NCBI GenBank assembly: GCA_000004695.1
Contig: CM000152.2
Span: 1,632,001-1,696,000 of the forward strand
Direction: 5' to 3'
Source of the DNA: Dictyostelium discoideum
Taxonomy: Eukaryota
Length of the DNA stretch: 64,000 nt
Shown here: positions 3,854 through 64,000 of the stretch, piece after piece
How the letters are laid out: each line of letters starts with the position of its first letter
Numbering within the stretch: position 1 is the first letter of the stretch
The notes under the pieces: model-generated
The model's database searches: none
What the model was told of the DNA's origin: nothing
What the model saw: the letters and a program-made list of their open reading frames with translations, nothing else
Program-made: the position numbers and the translations under genes

Positions 3854-6559
3854 CCACCATTACAACCATTAACACCTGACCCAATAATTAATAGTGGTTC
3901 TGGATCATTGGGTAGATCGAATCAATTAAAGAAAACTAGTTTAATTTTAAATGATATACCAGAGAATTCAATATTGGAATCACCATTACCACCACCACCA
4001 CAATCTTCAAATTCATTTTCAACATCAAATATTATTACAACAAATAAAACGCCAACTAAAACACCCAAAACGCCAAAAACACCAAAAACACCAAAAGATT
4101 CTAAAAAAGCTACAACTACTATAACAACAACCACTTCTACAGCATCAATTGATAAAGATTTAGCAAATTTACATAATTTAGAAGATAAAAAACAATCATC
4201 ATTTAAAAAGAATTTTAGTTCATTTATAAATGAATTGAATGGTGATTCACCAATTGCTTTAGTTGTTGATAAAGATAAACCATTTCCAACAACAACATCA
4301 GTAACAACATCAACTATTACAACAACTACAAATGATGAAATTGAAAAAGATAAATTAAAAGAATCAAGAACAATTAAAAAACATCAATCATTAAAAAAAA
4401 ATATTGTACCACCATTAAATATTGATCCAACTACAGGTTTAATTCATGCAAGTAATAAATTATCAATATTAAATGATAAAGTTGGAGATACAGGACCAAT
4501 ACCAAATGTTGAACAACCATCAATGTTTTCAATTAAAGATACGACCAATATTTTCAATTATAAGAAACCAGTGATTTCATCGAGTACCAAAGAGTTTATA
4601 GTTTGTTTAAAGAGGGTATTAATTGATAAGGAAAAGATTATGGAAAGAAATGATCAATCTCTTAGAACCGTTATACATAAACTATTCTTTACAATTAAAA
4701 AGTTACACCAAGATGGTAGTTTAAATATCCTATTCGATGATTTAAGGTTAATAACAGAGATTATCATTAGATCAGGTTATTTCATTCAAATTTTTAGATC
4801 ATTTTTTAAATTAATTGACGAAGTTAAAACTTCGGAGGTTTTCTTTAGTTTTCTTTCAGAGTGTCGTCATATGGTGGATATTATCAATTTAATAATTAAA
4901 GCCGCTGGTCATGGTAATGAAACTCAAACTAGAAAAATGATTTACATTGAAGAGGATCATCGTAAAATTCTATTGAAACAAATTAAATATCTCATTCAAA
5001 TTCTATTACAAAATGAAGAGTTAATTTCATTGGTTCGTAATATTAGTAATTTAAAGAAACAGGTTGACATTGCAAAAGAGGAACAAAGAAAAGCATTTCC
5101 CTATGATTTAAAAGAGAATTTAAAGTATGCACCATTCACCAATGAATTCATATGTGCAGCTCAATCGATAGTTGGTGAAAAAGTTAATATACGTAATATC
5201 TTTGCAAATGTAAATCAAGCGATAACCTATATTGGTAGTAATAGAAATTATAAACGTGTTATTAAAGAGTTTTCAACCATCATTCGTAGAATCTATTCAA
5301 CTGAGGAATCAAATTTAACAATTGAACTTGAAACTCAAACTCGTCAAGCTATGGATAGATTGGAGATAATGATAATTGAAATTTGTTCTCTACCATCATT
5401 GGTTGAGGTTAGAGTACAATTAACATTATTAATCTCTTCATTTATGTCTGACCCAATCAATGAAAAGTTAATTCACGATATTAAAGATCTATTCAATAGT
5501 TTAAAATCTGATAAAATTGGTAAAAAGATTGATATAAACATTTTTAGAGAATTAAAACTATTGGTATTCCCATATCTTATTCATAATATTCACAAGATAT
5601 CAATACCAAATATCGTTGGTTTAAAAGAGAGTTCAAAGAAAAAGATTGAATATAGATTAGAGAATATTAATTTAATCCTAACTAAAATCGATCCAAATGA
5701 TTTAAAAATCAAATTAATTTCTTCGGTTGAAACTGCACCATTAGTATTGAAAGGTTGTATCAAATCGATTCTATCGATAGAGTTAACAAATATTCAATTT
5801 CGTTTGGATCAAGTAGAATGGTACTTTAAGAAATCATCTTTTCCAAAGATTAAAGACAATGGTTTGGTTAATATTTCAACTGGTGGTGATGGTGATGGTA
5901 AAGGTGGTCATGGTGGTGGTGTTGATATTAAATTGAAGCTATCTTTCTCTCCAAAGATATTGGATAGTAAACATTGTTTCCAAATTTTAAAATCCAAATG
6001 TAAAATCAATGATATTCATATCAATATACTCAATAGTAATCATAATGGTCTCTATAAAACCATCTATAAACTATTTAAGAAAAAGATAAAGAAATCAATC
6101 GAAGATGCAATCTCTGAACAAATTAAAATCAAAGTTATGGAATTGGATCAATATATCTATGATCTTTTCTTGGCAAATGATAAACCAACCGTAGATAAGA
6201 ATTCAATCAAAAAGTTAAATAAAATTAAACGTGAGAAAATTTTAGAAAGAATTGTAACAGAAATTCCAACTTCAATTAAATCATCACGTAGATTCTCATT
6301 ACTCTCTTTCAATTATCCAAATCCAAATGGTAGTAGTGATGATTCACCAACTAATGTCTCTGGAACTAATACTCCAAGATCAACCACTTCAAAAAGATCT
6401 TTAGATGATGAAATTGAAGAATTCATTCTAAAAGAACAACAACGTGAACGTTTAGAAGATGAAGATAATTTAAATAAAAATTCTTTAGGTTATGAATTTA
6501 AATATGAATATAATTCACCTGCACCATTTGCAAAAACTGCTTCAAATTTTCCAATAACA

Positions 6560-6887: not shown

Positions 6888-10613
<3,726 letters not shown>

Positions 10614-10948: not shown

Positions 10949-13602
10949 TTAATTATTAACAACTAAAGAATTATTTTGTCTCTTTTTGTGAGATTTTTGT
11001 TGATTGCTATTGTGATGTTTTTTATTTTGATATTGTTGGTTACCTTGATTTTGATTTTGGTGGTGATGGTGATGATGTTGAGTGGTTTGTTGTTGTTGTT
11101 GATGATGTTGTTGTTGTTGTTGATTGTGGTGATGATGGCCGTGGTGTTGATGACCATGATGTTGGTGACCATGATGTTGACCACCAGCGATTGGTAAGTG
11201 ATCATTATCACCCTTCTTTCTGTAGGAGGTACCAAATTTAACATCGTAAATACGTTCATTTTGTTCGACAAAATCAACTAAAGATTCAGAGTAATGAAGA
11301 GCAAGATATTGGAGTTTAGTTTGTTCAGCACGGAAAGTGATTGATTCGGTAGAGTGTTCCATTGAGGCAGAGATTTCGTGATTATTCATCATTTTGGCGA
11401 CGATAGAGTGAACTTGACTCTTTGGTAAATGGAAACGATCGGCCAATTCACTGAGGAGGATACTATCGTAAGAAGTGGAATAAGTGAAGAGGAAAGTCTT
11501 TAAGGAGACCTCTTGAACGATACGAGTGAGTTTTTCACGAACACTGTCAATGTCTGGGATGAGGGACCAGAAACGAAGGGTGTTGACATGTTCGAGACAT
11601 TGTTGCCAGTCACCAGCGGATAAGGCTTTGCTAGCTTGATAGATGATATCTTTTGAGGTTTCGGATGGGGCAATAAAGATTTGACGATCGACACTATCCA
11701 TATGACGTTGATAGAATTTACAAGTTTTGAATTTGTTATCGAATGGACGATAGGCATTTTGTGGAACTGCGATTAACATACCAGAGATGAGATTAACGGT
11801 TTCAATCAAATCGATTGGAATCCACATATGAGCAGGAAGGATACGAGTGGTCTCTTCAACCTCTCTAACGGTATCTTTTTCAGCGGTTTTGCTTTGAACT
11901 GATAAACCTTGAGCCAAAAGATCCTTACGAAGACCAGAGAATTCGACGACACAATTTTGAGCCTCTTGAATGTAACCACAACGGAAAGCACAAAGACCCA
12001 ATTGAACCATAGCACGATTGAAAAGGATTTGAGTTGAAACATCCATGAGTGTTGGATTATCTTGGAGATGAGACATGAGCATCATATCACGAGCTTCATG
12101 GAATTTGTTATTGATGGCATTGAAGTAGATGTTACAAAGAATGGTACGAGCATTGAGACGTTCATCACCAAATTTATAGACAAAAGATGAGAGTTTACTC
12201 ATCAAGGTAATTTGCTCACTCAATGGCATTGTGCTTGGGATGATATTGTTTTTGAGATTACTTGATTTGTAGTAGATATGTTCGATACGACGAATGGCAA
12301 TCTTTGCGGCGGCGCCATTGTTACCTGCAGACTCGTAATACTTTTGAAGTGATTCACCCAAGTCTAAGATGATTTGTTCGTCTTGTAAACGATCTAAATA
12401 CTCTTTGGTTGGATAGTTGATTGATTGAAGTGACTTTGAGAATTCGTCATCCAACATTTCGAATAAAGCTAAAAGATTACCAGTTACTGCTACTTGACCC
12501 TTGCTGATGGTTGGTTCTTGGTGTTCGAGAACCAAGACAAAGTTGGTATTGGTCTCCAAGATCTCCAATAACTTTTTGATGCCATCGGCAACCTTTTGCC
12601 AAACTGGAATGGAGAGAGCAACCTTTACAGATGCAGTATCGAATTGAGCGGCAATCAATTCATAGAGTACAATAAAGGTCTCCTTATCGCCTTGGATTAA
12701 ACTGTAAAAATATTCAAGTTGTTGAATTTGTTTCATTGGGTCAGTCTTTAATTTACCTCTGTTGGAGATGACTTCTTTAACTTTCTTCATGATTTGGTCT
12801 TGAGTCAATTTCTCGCCTTCACCCTCACCGGCGGTTGGAACGGCACTGCCACTTCCACTGAGTGGTGAGACTACAGCATTTCTACGATCCAATTTATCCT
12901 TATCGGTCTTTCTCACGGTGGTAACTGAAGCTTTGGCTACAACCTTTTTATCGTCTTTAATCATCCATTTGTTATCGCCAGAGTCGTCATCACTGTCACT
13001 GTCAGAGTCGTCATCACTATCGGATGACCATGACTCTGAGATCAATTCTTCACTCTCTGATTCAGATTCTTCACTCTCTGACTCACTATCGTCATCACCT
13101 TTTTTGGTTAATGGTTTCTTTGCAACTACAGCTTTGGTGGCTGGTTTCTTACCAAATGCAGCTTTACCTTTACCTTTACCTTTATCATCATCTGATGATT
13201 CACTCTCTTCAGACTCAGATTCACTTAAATCGTCATCATCATCATCACTGTTGGCTTTGTTCTCTTGTTCATTCACCAATGCTGGATTATCATGATATGG
13301 TTTCAATTCCTTTGCATAGAGATCACATGTTTTCTTTAACTTTTGTTTGATTGAATTGTATGATTTATTATTATTTGCATGTAATTTCTTTTTTTGTTCT
13401 GTTGTTAAATCTCTATGACTTGTTTGAATAATAAATAATGCTTTAATAAATGATGGTGGGAAACCTTCTTTTTCAATAATTCTAGTTGTTTTACCATTTG
13501 TAATTAATTTTGTCATATTATCAAATTCTAAATATAATAAATAATAATAATAATAATAATAAAATATGTTAATATATTTTATGTGTGTTTGTGTGTGTTA
13601 AT

Positions 13603-13665
<63 letters not shown>

Positions 13666-13898
13666 CCTGAAGTAGTTGAAACCCAATCATTTGTTTTAAG
13701 AGCATTTCTAACTTTTTTTAAACTTTCATCAAATTGTTGCCAAATTTTATCTTTAGCTGATAAAACGATTCTTTTCTCTTCAATTTCATCTTCAGATGAT
13801 GAAACATAACGAGTTGGTTTTTTTACTTGAACATCTGAATCTGATGATGACTCTGATGATGATTCTGATGATGAACCTTGTCTATAAAAACGTGACAT
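10949..13898 (-). CDS. eif3C: Eukaryotic translation initiation factor 3 subunit C (eIF3c/NIP1), two exons
   Basis: Exon 1 is 13898..13667 (MSRFYRQGSSSESSS...LSAKDKIWQQFDESLKKVRNALKTNDWVSTTS), collinear with the human EIF3C N-terminus (MSRFF..GSDSES..VRSAKDKRFEEL). Donor GTAAAT at 13666; 140-nt (TTTA)n-rich intron; acceptor AG at 13529-13528. Exon 2 is 13527..10949 and carries the PCI domain (DMMLMSHLQDNPTLMDVSTQILFNRAMVQLGLCAFR; LKTFLFTYSTSYDSI), which matches human EIF3C closely. The tail is His/Gln-rich. Phase was checked (232-nt exon 1, phase 1). Confidence 0.85.
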
Positions 13899-14735: not shown

Positions 14736-15008
14736 ATGACAGATATAGAAATAAAAGAAAATGAAGAAAACATAACTATAATTAATATAGGTATTGAAAT
14801 TATAGTGAATGAAAGATCAAATGCATTATTCAACACATTAAAATCAAATATAGAATCATTTATAAAGCAACGACCAAATAAAGAGAATGAAATAATTCAA
14901 ACACTTTATTCATTGAACAATTCATTGGAAAGAGCAGTTAAATATTTCGATTATCCTGATAAATCAATTGATTATTATAAAATTATTTTATTAGGAATAT
15001 CTGATAAA

Positions 15009-15054
<46 letters not shown>

Positions 15055-16284
15055 GTAATAATACATTTCATATTAATTATCAAAATAAGGGTATTATACC
15101 TACGATACCAATTAAATTTCAAATAAATTATCAAACATTTATATATAAATTATCAACAGAACCACCACAAAGTGAATTATCTGATGATTTAGAAACTTCA
15201 CCACCCTATCAACAATTAGTTTTACCAAATAAATCAATTGAAACACTTTGGGAAAAGTATTTTTCATTCATCATCCCTAATTTTCATTTAATAAATTATT
15301 TTTACTAATTATTTATTATTATTAATAAAAAAAAAAAAAAAAAGTTTAATTTATGAAGATGGTTTAAAATCAAAATTATTATCATATATGTCAACATTAA
15401 TTGTAAGAACAAATTTATATTATTATAAATTTATATTATTATAAAACTATTAAAATTTTTTTTTTTATTTTTTTATTTTTTTTTTTTATTATTATTATTT
15501 TAGTTATTTTCAAAATTTAGAATAGATTCAAATATTGTATCAAATAATAAAGTAATATTTTTATATGGACCACCAGGTACAGGTAAAACAAGTTTAGCCA
15601 AAGCATTAGCGCAAAGAATATCGATTGTATATAGGGATAGATATCAATTTTCACAATTGATTGAAATTAATACTCATAGTTTATTTAGTAAATGGTTTTC
15701 AGAGAGTGGAAAATTAGTGATGAAAATGTTTGAGAATATAAAAGAGTTATTAGAGGACCAAAATTGTTTTGTAATGATATTAATTGACGAAGTTGAAAGT
15801 TTGGCAGCAGCAAGAAGTTCAGCAATTAACAATGGTACAGAACCAAGTGACTCGATTAGAGTGGTGAATGCATTTCTAACACAATTGGATCAACTAAAAC
15901 AATATTCAAATGTTTTAGTTGTTGCAACTTCAAATATAACGAAAGCGGTTGACCTCGCCTTCATTGATCGTGCCGATATTAAACAGTTTATTGGACCACC
16001 ACCAATCGATGCAAGAAAAATACATCTTTCAAACTATATTCACTGAATTATCAAATAAAGGTATACTAACATTAGATTATGAAACATTGGATACTCAATT
16101 AATATCATTATCAAATTCTACTGAAAACTATAGTGGTAGAGCCATTAGAAAATTACCAACCGTAGCATTATCATCTCATATTGCCTATACTCAATTTCCA
16201 ATTCATTCAAATAGATTCACTTGTATCTTATTAGATTTTATTGAAAAAAATAATTTATCAAATAATCAATTATTAAATGAATAA
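14736..16284 (+). CDS. TRIP13/PCH2 AAA+ ATPase orthologue, three exons, with an apparent 1-nt frameshift near 16041-16046
   Basis: Exons are 14736..15256, 15345..15402 and 15504..16284, with donors GTATTT at 15257 and GTAAGA at 15403, and acceptors AG at 15343-44 and 15502-03. The spliced product reads ...[96 protein letters not shown]..., near-collinear with human TRIP13 (LWDSLVYDVEVKSHLLDYVMTTLLFSDKNV...[23 protein letters not shown]...[24 protein letters not shown]). Walker [14 protein letters not shown] is present. After ...[18 protein letters not shown] the frame hits TGA at 16044-46. The conserved C-terminus ([15 protein letters not shown]...[12 protein letters not shown]...) continues in the +1 frame through to the TAA at 16282-84. 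Confidence 0.8.
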
Positions 16285-16336
16285 TAAATATTTATTATTT
16301 TTTAAAAATTTATATATATATTGTTTATTTTTTATA

Positions 16337-20371: not shown

Positions 20372-21295
20372 TATTTTTATAAAAATAGTTATAAAATTTT
20401 AAAAGAAGGACCAAATTATTTTCAATTATTATTTTATGATACAAGTTTTACATATTTAGATGCATGTTTTACATCAGATTCAACAGCAATGACATCAATT
20501 TTAGCGAGATATCCAAATTTTATATTCATATTACAGATTCCAGGTATTCAAAGTAAACCTAGTGTTTGTAATTCACATCCAAATGATCCAGTTGTCAAGG
20601 ATACAGAAAAGGATTCAAGATTAATTGATACAATCGATTATCAAGAGAAGAGGGTAATATTTGAACCAAGAAAAATTGGACCACTTGCAATTGTTGGTCC
20701 AGTTAAGAATTGTTTAGGTCAACCTTATCATATGACACATATAGCTTCAAATCCAAATTTGTTTCCTGATAAAGTTAAAGCATTTGAATTTATTACTTGG
20801 AATGATGATAATATAGGTGAATGTTGTTTTTGGAATATTTTTAAAGATCAACAATCATCTCATGGTATTAGTAGTGGTGGTAGTGGTAGTGGTGGTAGCA
20901 ATAAACATGGTGGTAGTGGTGGTGGTAGTAGTGGTGGTGGTGGTGGTGGTGGTGCTAATAATCATCAATCACCATTAAGAAATATTCCGTCATTAAAATT
21001 TGAGTGGATGACAAAATTTGTAGGATCAATTGTACCAGATAGAGCATGGATAGAAAAAGAATCATCACCAAAGACTCAAATCATTGATATGATTTTCTCA
21101 CCACATGGTGATTTAATAATGACTGTTGTCAAAAAAGAAAACCATGATCATAAAAATAAATCATCAAATGGTATTGGATTTCAATGTATTCCATCGACTT
21201 TGGAATTATTGAATTTTAATAGTCCTACTGATAACAGCAACAGCAGTAATACATCATTATCAAGTAATAATAATAATAATAATAACAATAATAAC

Positions 21296-21352
<57 letters not shown>

Positions 21353-21885
21353 AGTAATTATAATCAATATAATTTTAATAATAAAATTAATAGTTATAAG
21401 ATTGGTAATCAAAATAACCCAATATTAAGTAAAGGTATGATTGGTGGTGATTTAACGAGTTCATGGTTTCAAATATCGGAATCATTCGATAAGAGTATAA
21501 TTTTATCAAGTAAATGGACAGATTCATTATTTTTTGGTGGATCATCTCAATTATTACCAAGTGTATTGGTAAAGGATAAAGGTGTCTATGAATTAGTTTC
21601 AAATAACTATTGTGCTCAATTTACAAATGCTTCAGAGGAATTTATGAAAACTTGTGTAAACTTTATTCAATTAGGTAAATATCATAGATTATGGATATCA
21701 TGTTATGGTACTCTCTACTCTATTACAATGACTCCAAAGAATGAAAAATTCATTGAATGGATTCCCACTGTCTTTGAAACTCTACCTCAAAATTCAACTG
21801 CTCGTTCAAATAATTTATCTCATTCAAAATATTTTAAAGTTTCTCAAATGATTGGTTATTCTTTAATTGATTTTTCAAAAGGTAA

Positions 21886-46721: not shown

Positions 46722-46853
46722 TTTATACCAGGAGAGGATTTGTCGTTTAATTTATTTTTTATTTTTTCATTTTTTTTTTTTTTTTTTTTTTATTTTTAAA
46801 TTTTGTTTTTGTTTTGGATCTATAAAAAAAAAAAACAAAGAAAAAGTATTTTA

Positions 46854-46888
<35 letters not shown>

Positions 46889-46973
46889 TAATAATAATAA
46901 TAATAATAGTAATAATAATAAATAATAAATAATAATTATAATTATAATAATATATAATAATTTATAATAATAA

Positions 46974-57105: not shown

Positions 57106-64000
<6,895 letters not shown>

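Follow-up and report, generated by a model that had tools for sequence, protein, structure and literature searches.

A single-base A-run discrepancy that truncates TRIP13/PCH2 in the Dictyostelium discoideum AX4 reference sequence is most likely an artefact of the reference

The window analysed here is the whole stretch of 64,000 nucleotides of Dictyostelium discoideum DNA taken from assembly GCA_000004695.1 (contig CM000152.2, positions 1,632,001 to 1,696,000 of the forward strand). Its G+C content is 26%, its genes carry short GT..AG introns and Asn-tract repeats within the coding sequence, and the proteins that match it best are from D. discoideum. A TRIP13/PCH2 gene of three exons was located on the plus strand at 14736-16287. 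Its neighbours are the genes for eIF3 subunit C (eIF3c, 10949-13898, minus strand) and methionyl-tRNA synthetase (MetRS, 16404 onward, minus strand), and this eIF3c/TRIP13/MetRS neighbourhood was common to all related loci. Exon 1 (14736..15256) encodes the N-terminal region, including an Asn tract written as (AAT)15 at 15009-15053. It is followed by intron 1 (15257..15344, 88 nt, GT...AG), exon 2 (15345..15402) and intron 2 (15403..15503, 101 nt, GTAAGA...TTTTAG), all three placed by the splicing of the product. In frame A (coordinate mod 3 = 0), the last exon stays open from 15504 up to a premature TGA at 16044..16046, and this part holds the AAA+ core (Pfam AAA PF00004, E=2e-26). Walker A (GPPGTGKT, 15567-15590), the pore loop (SKWFSESGK, 15687-15713) and Walker B (LIDEVE, 15780-15797) were all found there in frame A. 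The remainder of exon 3 (16021..16287) reads in frame B as 87 codons plus a stop codon, the TAA at 16285-16287, which follows ...NQLLNE in the +1 frame translation. This remainder encodes the AAA+ lid (the TRIP13 C-terminal domain), with the lid motif SGRAIRKLP at 16132-16158.

The spliced frame-A product of 373 aa was identical, letter for letter, with the published AX4 protein DDIS009649_TRIP13, including the out-of-frame tail KIHLSNYIH. That entry comes from Dataset EV1 of van Hooff et al. 2017 (EMBO Rep), in which the Dictyostelium proteome is that of AX4. The two show no difference and are one and the same truncated model, which identifies the window as the AX4 reference and means that the truncation had been public before. 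A literature search on Dictyostelium TRIP13/PCH2 returned no comment on the truncation or the frameshift, nor on per-site errors of the reference.

To the DNA of exon 3 we aligned six related loci (L001-L006, described below), and a lone indel was found, an extra A in GCAAG-AAAAA-TAC at 16016-16020, which reads GCA AGA AAA ATA C in frame A. The run sits between GATGCAAG and TACATCTTTC. It has five bases in the window (A5) and four in the others, as A4 or, in the two other species, as AGAA/GAAG. The resulting +1 frameshift falls after codon 363/364 (..IDARK), immediately behind the conserved IGPP motif, where the large AAA+ subdomain ends. Judged by the open reading frames alone, the frame switch could lie anywhere up to 16046, since frame B is open from about 15946. 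The match of IGPPSAAAIFKIYLSCLEEL to the human sequence predicted a junction within the A-run, and the DNA alignment agreed. At this junction the orthologues read K/E-YIFQTIF/Y-xEL, unlike the tail KIHLSNYIH of the window. When one A was deleted, the exon-3 protein became 100% identical to the D. discoideum protein KAM9953113.1 over 259 aa and identical to that of L003.

The original prediction had placed a 1-nt frameshift in the C-terminal part of the gene, which was correct, and had located the switch at 16041-16046, which was about 25 nt too far downstream. It had also named an extra T at 16044, and this did not survive the alignment with seven other assemblies, in which the lesion is the extra A at 16016-16020. 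The TGA at 16044-16046 is the first stop in the wrong frame because of the extra A upstream, and is therefore the consequence of the lesion and not its site. The comparison with an independent assembly proposed at the time did reveal a disagreement in base count (A4 in GCA_054883475.1), only not at T16044. Repair by deleting T16044 was rejected, as it restores the frame but keeps the nine non-homologous residues KIHLSNYIH.

An intron bypassing the lesion was also considered and rejected, since the relatives are colinear through the site. Slightly downstream, GTATACTAACATTAG at 16061-16075 mimics a tiny intron, with GT, a perfect yeast-type TACTAAC branch site and AG. It was rejected as an intron because its 15 nt are in-frame coding sequence (GILTLD), near-identical in the D. 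discoideum-clade strains and D. dimigraforme, and the equivalent in D. purpureum is still coding. The resemblance to an intron is due to chance. The earlier statement that an interval of 15 nt is too short for an intron was correct.

With one A dropped, the gene encodes a protein of 452 aa. Residues 135-425 of this repaired protein aligned with residues 99-404 of human TRIP13 (PDB 6lk0, 5vq9, 7l9p; E=6e-82), so the TRIP13 homology check suggested for the repaired protein gave a positive answer. Pfam placed the AAA core at residues 211-357 and the TRIP13 lid at residues 387-441. The lid match (PF23242, AAA_lid_TRIP13_C) had E=3.8e-5 and 24.3 bits, which is below the cut-off of 27, while the PDB alignment reaches residue 425. 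Human TRIP13 structures were matched with E about 1e-81, versus about 1e-28 for Cdc48/p97. The top database matches were PCH2 homologues from animals, plants and amoebae, and those with names were pachytene checkpoint protein 2 homologues. The repaired exon 3 by itself gave E=5e-161 against KAM9953113.1 and about 1e-70 against animal PCH2, in agreement with the strong homology first claimed for it. Judged by sequence similarity, the gene is clearly a TRIP13/PCH2 orthologue.

The motifs of human TRIP13 (6lk0, 5vq9, 7l9p) and C. elegans PCH-2 (4xgu), namely Walker A, the pore loop, Walker B and SGRxxRKLP, are also present in the repaired Dictyostelium protein. The gene as written in the window differs from TRIP13/PCH2 in stopping ahead of the lid domain. 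Core and lid share one frame after repair and in all other assemblies, whereas in the window the lid lies in the +1 frame after A5. The 373-aa product therefore retains Walker A, the pore loop and Walker B, and is without the whole lid including SGRxxRKLP. The AAA+ lid contributes to the nucleotide pocket and to the subunit interfaces, and for this reason the 373-aa product should be inactive.

At the other end of the protein, no Pfam match to the TRIP13 N-terminal family PF23563 was obtained for the Dictyostelium protein. Among the precomputed domains, PF23563 was listed for most animal orthologues and for none of the dictyostelid ones (P0001-P0006 and P0091). The N-terminal substrate/adaptor-binding domain of dictyostelids thus appears, from its sequence, to be strongly diverged or different. 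The PDB alignment of the Dictyostelium protein begins only at human residue 99.

The six related loci came from two wild D. discoideum, two D. cf. discoideum, D. dimigraforme and D. purpureum (the last being L005, GL870946.1). A seventh assembly, GCA_054883475.1 (contig CM142509.1, 6.43 Mb, L007/L008), was found via the neighbouring single-exon proteins of 1086 aa and 1238 aa; the site lies near 1.72 Mb of that contig, presumably on chromosome 3. Four bases at the site and an in-frame gene were present in all six loci and in GCA_054883475.1, in which the run is A4 and TRIP13 is called as 452 aa. Over positions 1-20615 of the window, GCA_054883475.1 showed 6 substitutions in 20.6 kb, against differences of 4-8% between the wild isolates and the window across the locus, and on this ground it was assigned to the same NC4 laboratory lineage as the window. 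Its strain is probably AX2-214, from the study of Holland et al. 2025 (PMC12745789), who reported ten Nanopore + Illumina assemblies, including AX2-214, CR116C, OT3A, M4B, S6B, D. dimigraformum AR5b and others. The organism names of L001-L004 and L006 fit the assemblies of that study as well.

The intact TRIP13 genes of the D. discoideum clade (KAM9953113.1, KAM9963238.1, KAM9989565.1, KAM9982795.1 and the gene of GCA_054883475.1) share 96-100% exon-3 identity with the repaired window protein, and like the window gene they have three exons with eIF3c and MetRS as neighbours. They differ from it in having A4 instead of A5 and in reading through to ...NQLLNE, with total lengths of 442-452 aa. 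The length of the exon 1 Asn tract also differs from the window, by 7-10 codons and always by multiples of three in the wild D. discoideum-clade isolates, while the near-identical assembly GCA_054883475.1 has the same tract length as the window. Among the sequences compared, only the AX4 reference carries the extra A. Since neither the near-identical assembly nor any relative has it, it is no old pseudogene lesion, no natural polymorphism inherited from NC4 and no conserved recoding site. The list of causes given in the original prediction (a reference indel error, a strain-specific mutation and, least likely, recoding) was sound, and is now narrowed to a lesion private to the AX4 reference.

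Between positions 8800 and 19600 of the window, L001-L004 differed from it by 4-8% overall and by 6-20% at the synonymous sites of TRIP13 exon 3. For D. discoideum as a species, a mean diversity of about 0.3% has been quoted (bioRxiv 10.1101/2025.10.22.684067). The divergence of these four loci is far above that value, and fits the view of Holland et al. that tropical isolates are strongly diverged or cryptic species.

Other collections were searched as well. Metagenome scans with patterns spanning the A-run with 4 or 5 bases gave no match, and a query of a large protein collection with the frame-A tail returned only distant TRIP13 fragments. The 91-aa and 129-aa open reading frames were absent from a large protein collection by exact look-up, and a cluster collection contained neither the 373-aa nor the 452-aa product, nor the 1086-aa protein of the neighbouring gene.

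Run lengths were then compared over the 20.6 kb shared by the window and GCA_054883475.1. Among homopolymers of 4-9 nt, 548 of 549 had the same length, and the TRIP13 run was the sole exception. Among runs of at least 10 nt, 15 of 56 were unequal. Between the window and L001, the comparable coding runs of at least 4 nt agreed throughout (89/89) apart from the TRIP13 run. A general homopolymer problem in either assembly was rejected on the strength of these two comparisons. True indels in the neighbouring coding exons of eIF3c and MetRS were all multiples of 3. The 15 unequal long runs are all noncoding, and nearly all of them are shorter in the newer assembly.

Selection on the part downstream of the lesion was assessed in the repaired frame. 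Against the D. discoideum-clade strains, the 87 downstream codons showed 4-6 synonymous and 0-2 nonsynonymous differences (pN/pS 0-0.13), and against D. dimigraforme 19 synonymous and 8 nonsynonymous ones (pN/pS 0.11). From these low ratios it follows that the frame was selected until very recently, or still is. Neither several lesions nor relaxed selection, as a pseudogene would show, was seen; there is one lesion, and the 87 codons give the same protein as in L003.

These data bear on the reading in which the whole NC4 lineage, or the species, truly carries the frameshift, as an old or segregating pseudogene, and the run was called too short in the other assemblies. In its favour, Nanopore data, on which the other D. 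discoideum-clade assemblies are based, tend to make homopolymers too short. However, the low pN/pS of the downstream codons (0-0.13) does not suit it, no other run of 4-9 nt was unequal in 20.6 kb, and the gene is in frame in D. purpureum and D. dimigraforme, where the site holds no homopolymer. It would moreover call for the identical error in five separate assemblies, just where it restores the conserved frame, which is not credible, and the Nanopore assemblies had been combined with Illumina reads (PMC12745789). We consider this reading extremely improbable.

Programmed recoding would bring the ribosome into frame B by a +1 shift on AAA-A, with the Lys-tRNA moving from 16017-19 to 16018-20, or would change the message by polymerase slippage. 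In formal terms the A-run is a slippery sequence that would permit a +1 shift, and downstream of it the frame is intact, but all seven other assemblies are single-frame at the site, so that no conserved slippery site was found. The A-site codon in the 0 frame would be ATA, which is neither a stop nor obviously rare, and five A's are short for transcriptional slippage, and both points count against recoding. Its probability is at best negligible. Taken together, all explanations besides a reference error and a mutation in the laboratory lineage are very improbable.

The extra A is probably a reference error in AX4. One A would have been miscalled in a homopolymer of the 2005 Sanger consensus, and the reading of the AX4 reference would consequently shift frame at A5 and stop nine codons later, yielding the annotated 373-aa protein without its lid. 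Real AX4 cells would then encode an intact 452-aa ATPase, like the sister laboratory strain and the wild isolates. Sanger-era references of AT-rich genomes have indel errors of about 1e-5 to 1e-4 per base, which is far commoner than real new mutations. The TRIP13 lesion resembles such errors in being a single-base change of run length that is private to an old reference and splits a conserved open reading frame. It differs from the usual ones in that the run is only 5 nt long, shorter than the typical trouble tracts, and the other length disagreements between the window and GCA_054883475.1 are, unlike the TRIP13 run, all in runs of at least 10 nt.

The competing explanation is a real mutation, in which slippage lengthened the run from A4 to A5 in the AX3/AX4 branch once this had split from the AX2 branch; we hold it to be possible but less likely. 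AX4 would then make a 373-aa lidless TRIP13 that has lost the whole AAA+ lid with SGRxxRKLP, most likely as a null allele tolerated in vegetative laboratory growth. A distinction between A5 and A4 is easy for Sanger chemistry at normal coverage, which speaks for a real base. The absence of the A from the near-identical assembly and the relatives means that the event, if real, is very recent, and downstream codons without decay fit such an event. In D. discoideum mutation-accumulation lines, indels arose primarily in A:T homopolymers, and the two G:C->A:T coding differences at 653 and 720, 15 kb off, could likewise be real strain differences (PMC7466956 for the former). On the other side, indels have been measured in D. 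discoideum at a rate of about 5e-11 per site per generation (PMC7466956), and therefore only a handful of real coding frameshifts is expected in the laboratory lineage, while a reference miscall is commoner a priori.

The differences at 653 and 720 are the only substitutions in complex sequence between the window and GCA_054883475.1 in 20.6 kb, and they are 67 bp apart. Both are G:C->A:T in the window and nonsynonymous (K63 vs R and K41 vs E, respectively), and they lie in a minus-strand gene with its ATG at 840, which encodes 2242 aa in L007/L008. Either clustered mutations of the nitrosoguanidine type in the AX3/AX4 lineage or errors in the reference could account for them.

As to function, intact TRIP13 would be a hexameric AAA+ ATPase that remodels HORMA proteins. 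Its substrate in Dictyostelium would be Mad2, reached via p31comet, since no meiotic HORMAD is recorded for AX4. Dataset EV1 of van Hooff et al. 2017 has AX4 (DDIS) entries for Mad2 and p31comet and none in the HORMAD file, and loss of HOP1 in Dictyostelium was described by Hofstatter et al. 2018 (PMC6263441). The role of the protein is thus likely to be Mad2/p31comet remodelling rather than remodelling of the meiotic axis.

The two explanations have different practical consequences. If the A is a reference error, the AX4 model needs lengthening from 373 to 452 aa, the D. purpureum model that ends at the equivalent residue also needs correction, and surveys of TRIP13 and of the meiotic toolkit in Dictyostelium should be based on the full-length sequence. 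If instead a real mutation of AX3/AX4 is present, work with AX4 is done in a TRIP13-deficient background and work with AX2 is not, and experiments on the spindle checkpoint, ploidy and macrocysts could be affected. We regard it as rather unlikely that A5 is real in AX4 (perhaps also in AX3) and absent in AX2, which would make AX4 a natural knockout of TRIP13, the Mad2/p31comet-recycling ATPase. Spindle-checkpoint signalling or the sexual (macrocyst) cycle might be impaired in such a knockout. Whichever explanation applies, one base of a known gene is concerned and no new biological mechanism. The locus shows a homopolymer discrepancy of an ordinary kind, most likely an artefact of the reference. 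The truncated model and the intact alleles were public before; what is added here is the exact lesion and its privacy to the AX4 reference.

The D. purpureum TRIP13 model XP_003283304 (P0003) is flagged as partial and ends in ...IGPPSVKARE, at the point homologous to the AX4 frameshift. The D. purpureum DNA (GL870946.1, about 4100-4390) stays in frame for about 90 further codons to a stop. XP_003283304 may well have been built by homology to the truncated AX4 protein.

In BLAST comparisons, the long trinucleotide (Asn/Gln-coding) repeats at 9800-10070, 21250-21400, 46850-46970 and 62540-62930 of the window cross-matched one another and the eIF3c region of L004/L006. These four tracts are ordinary Dictyostelium coding microsatellites and a source of spurious alignments.
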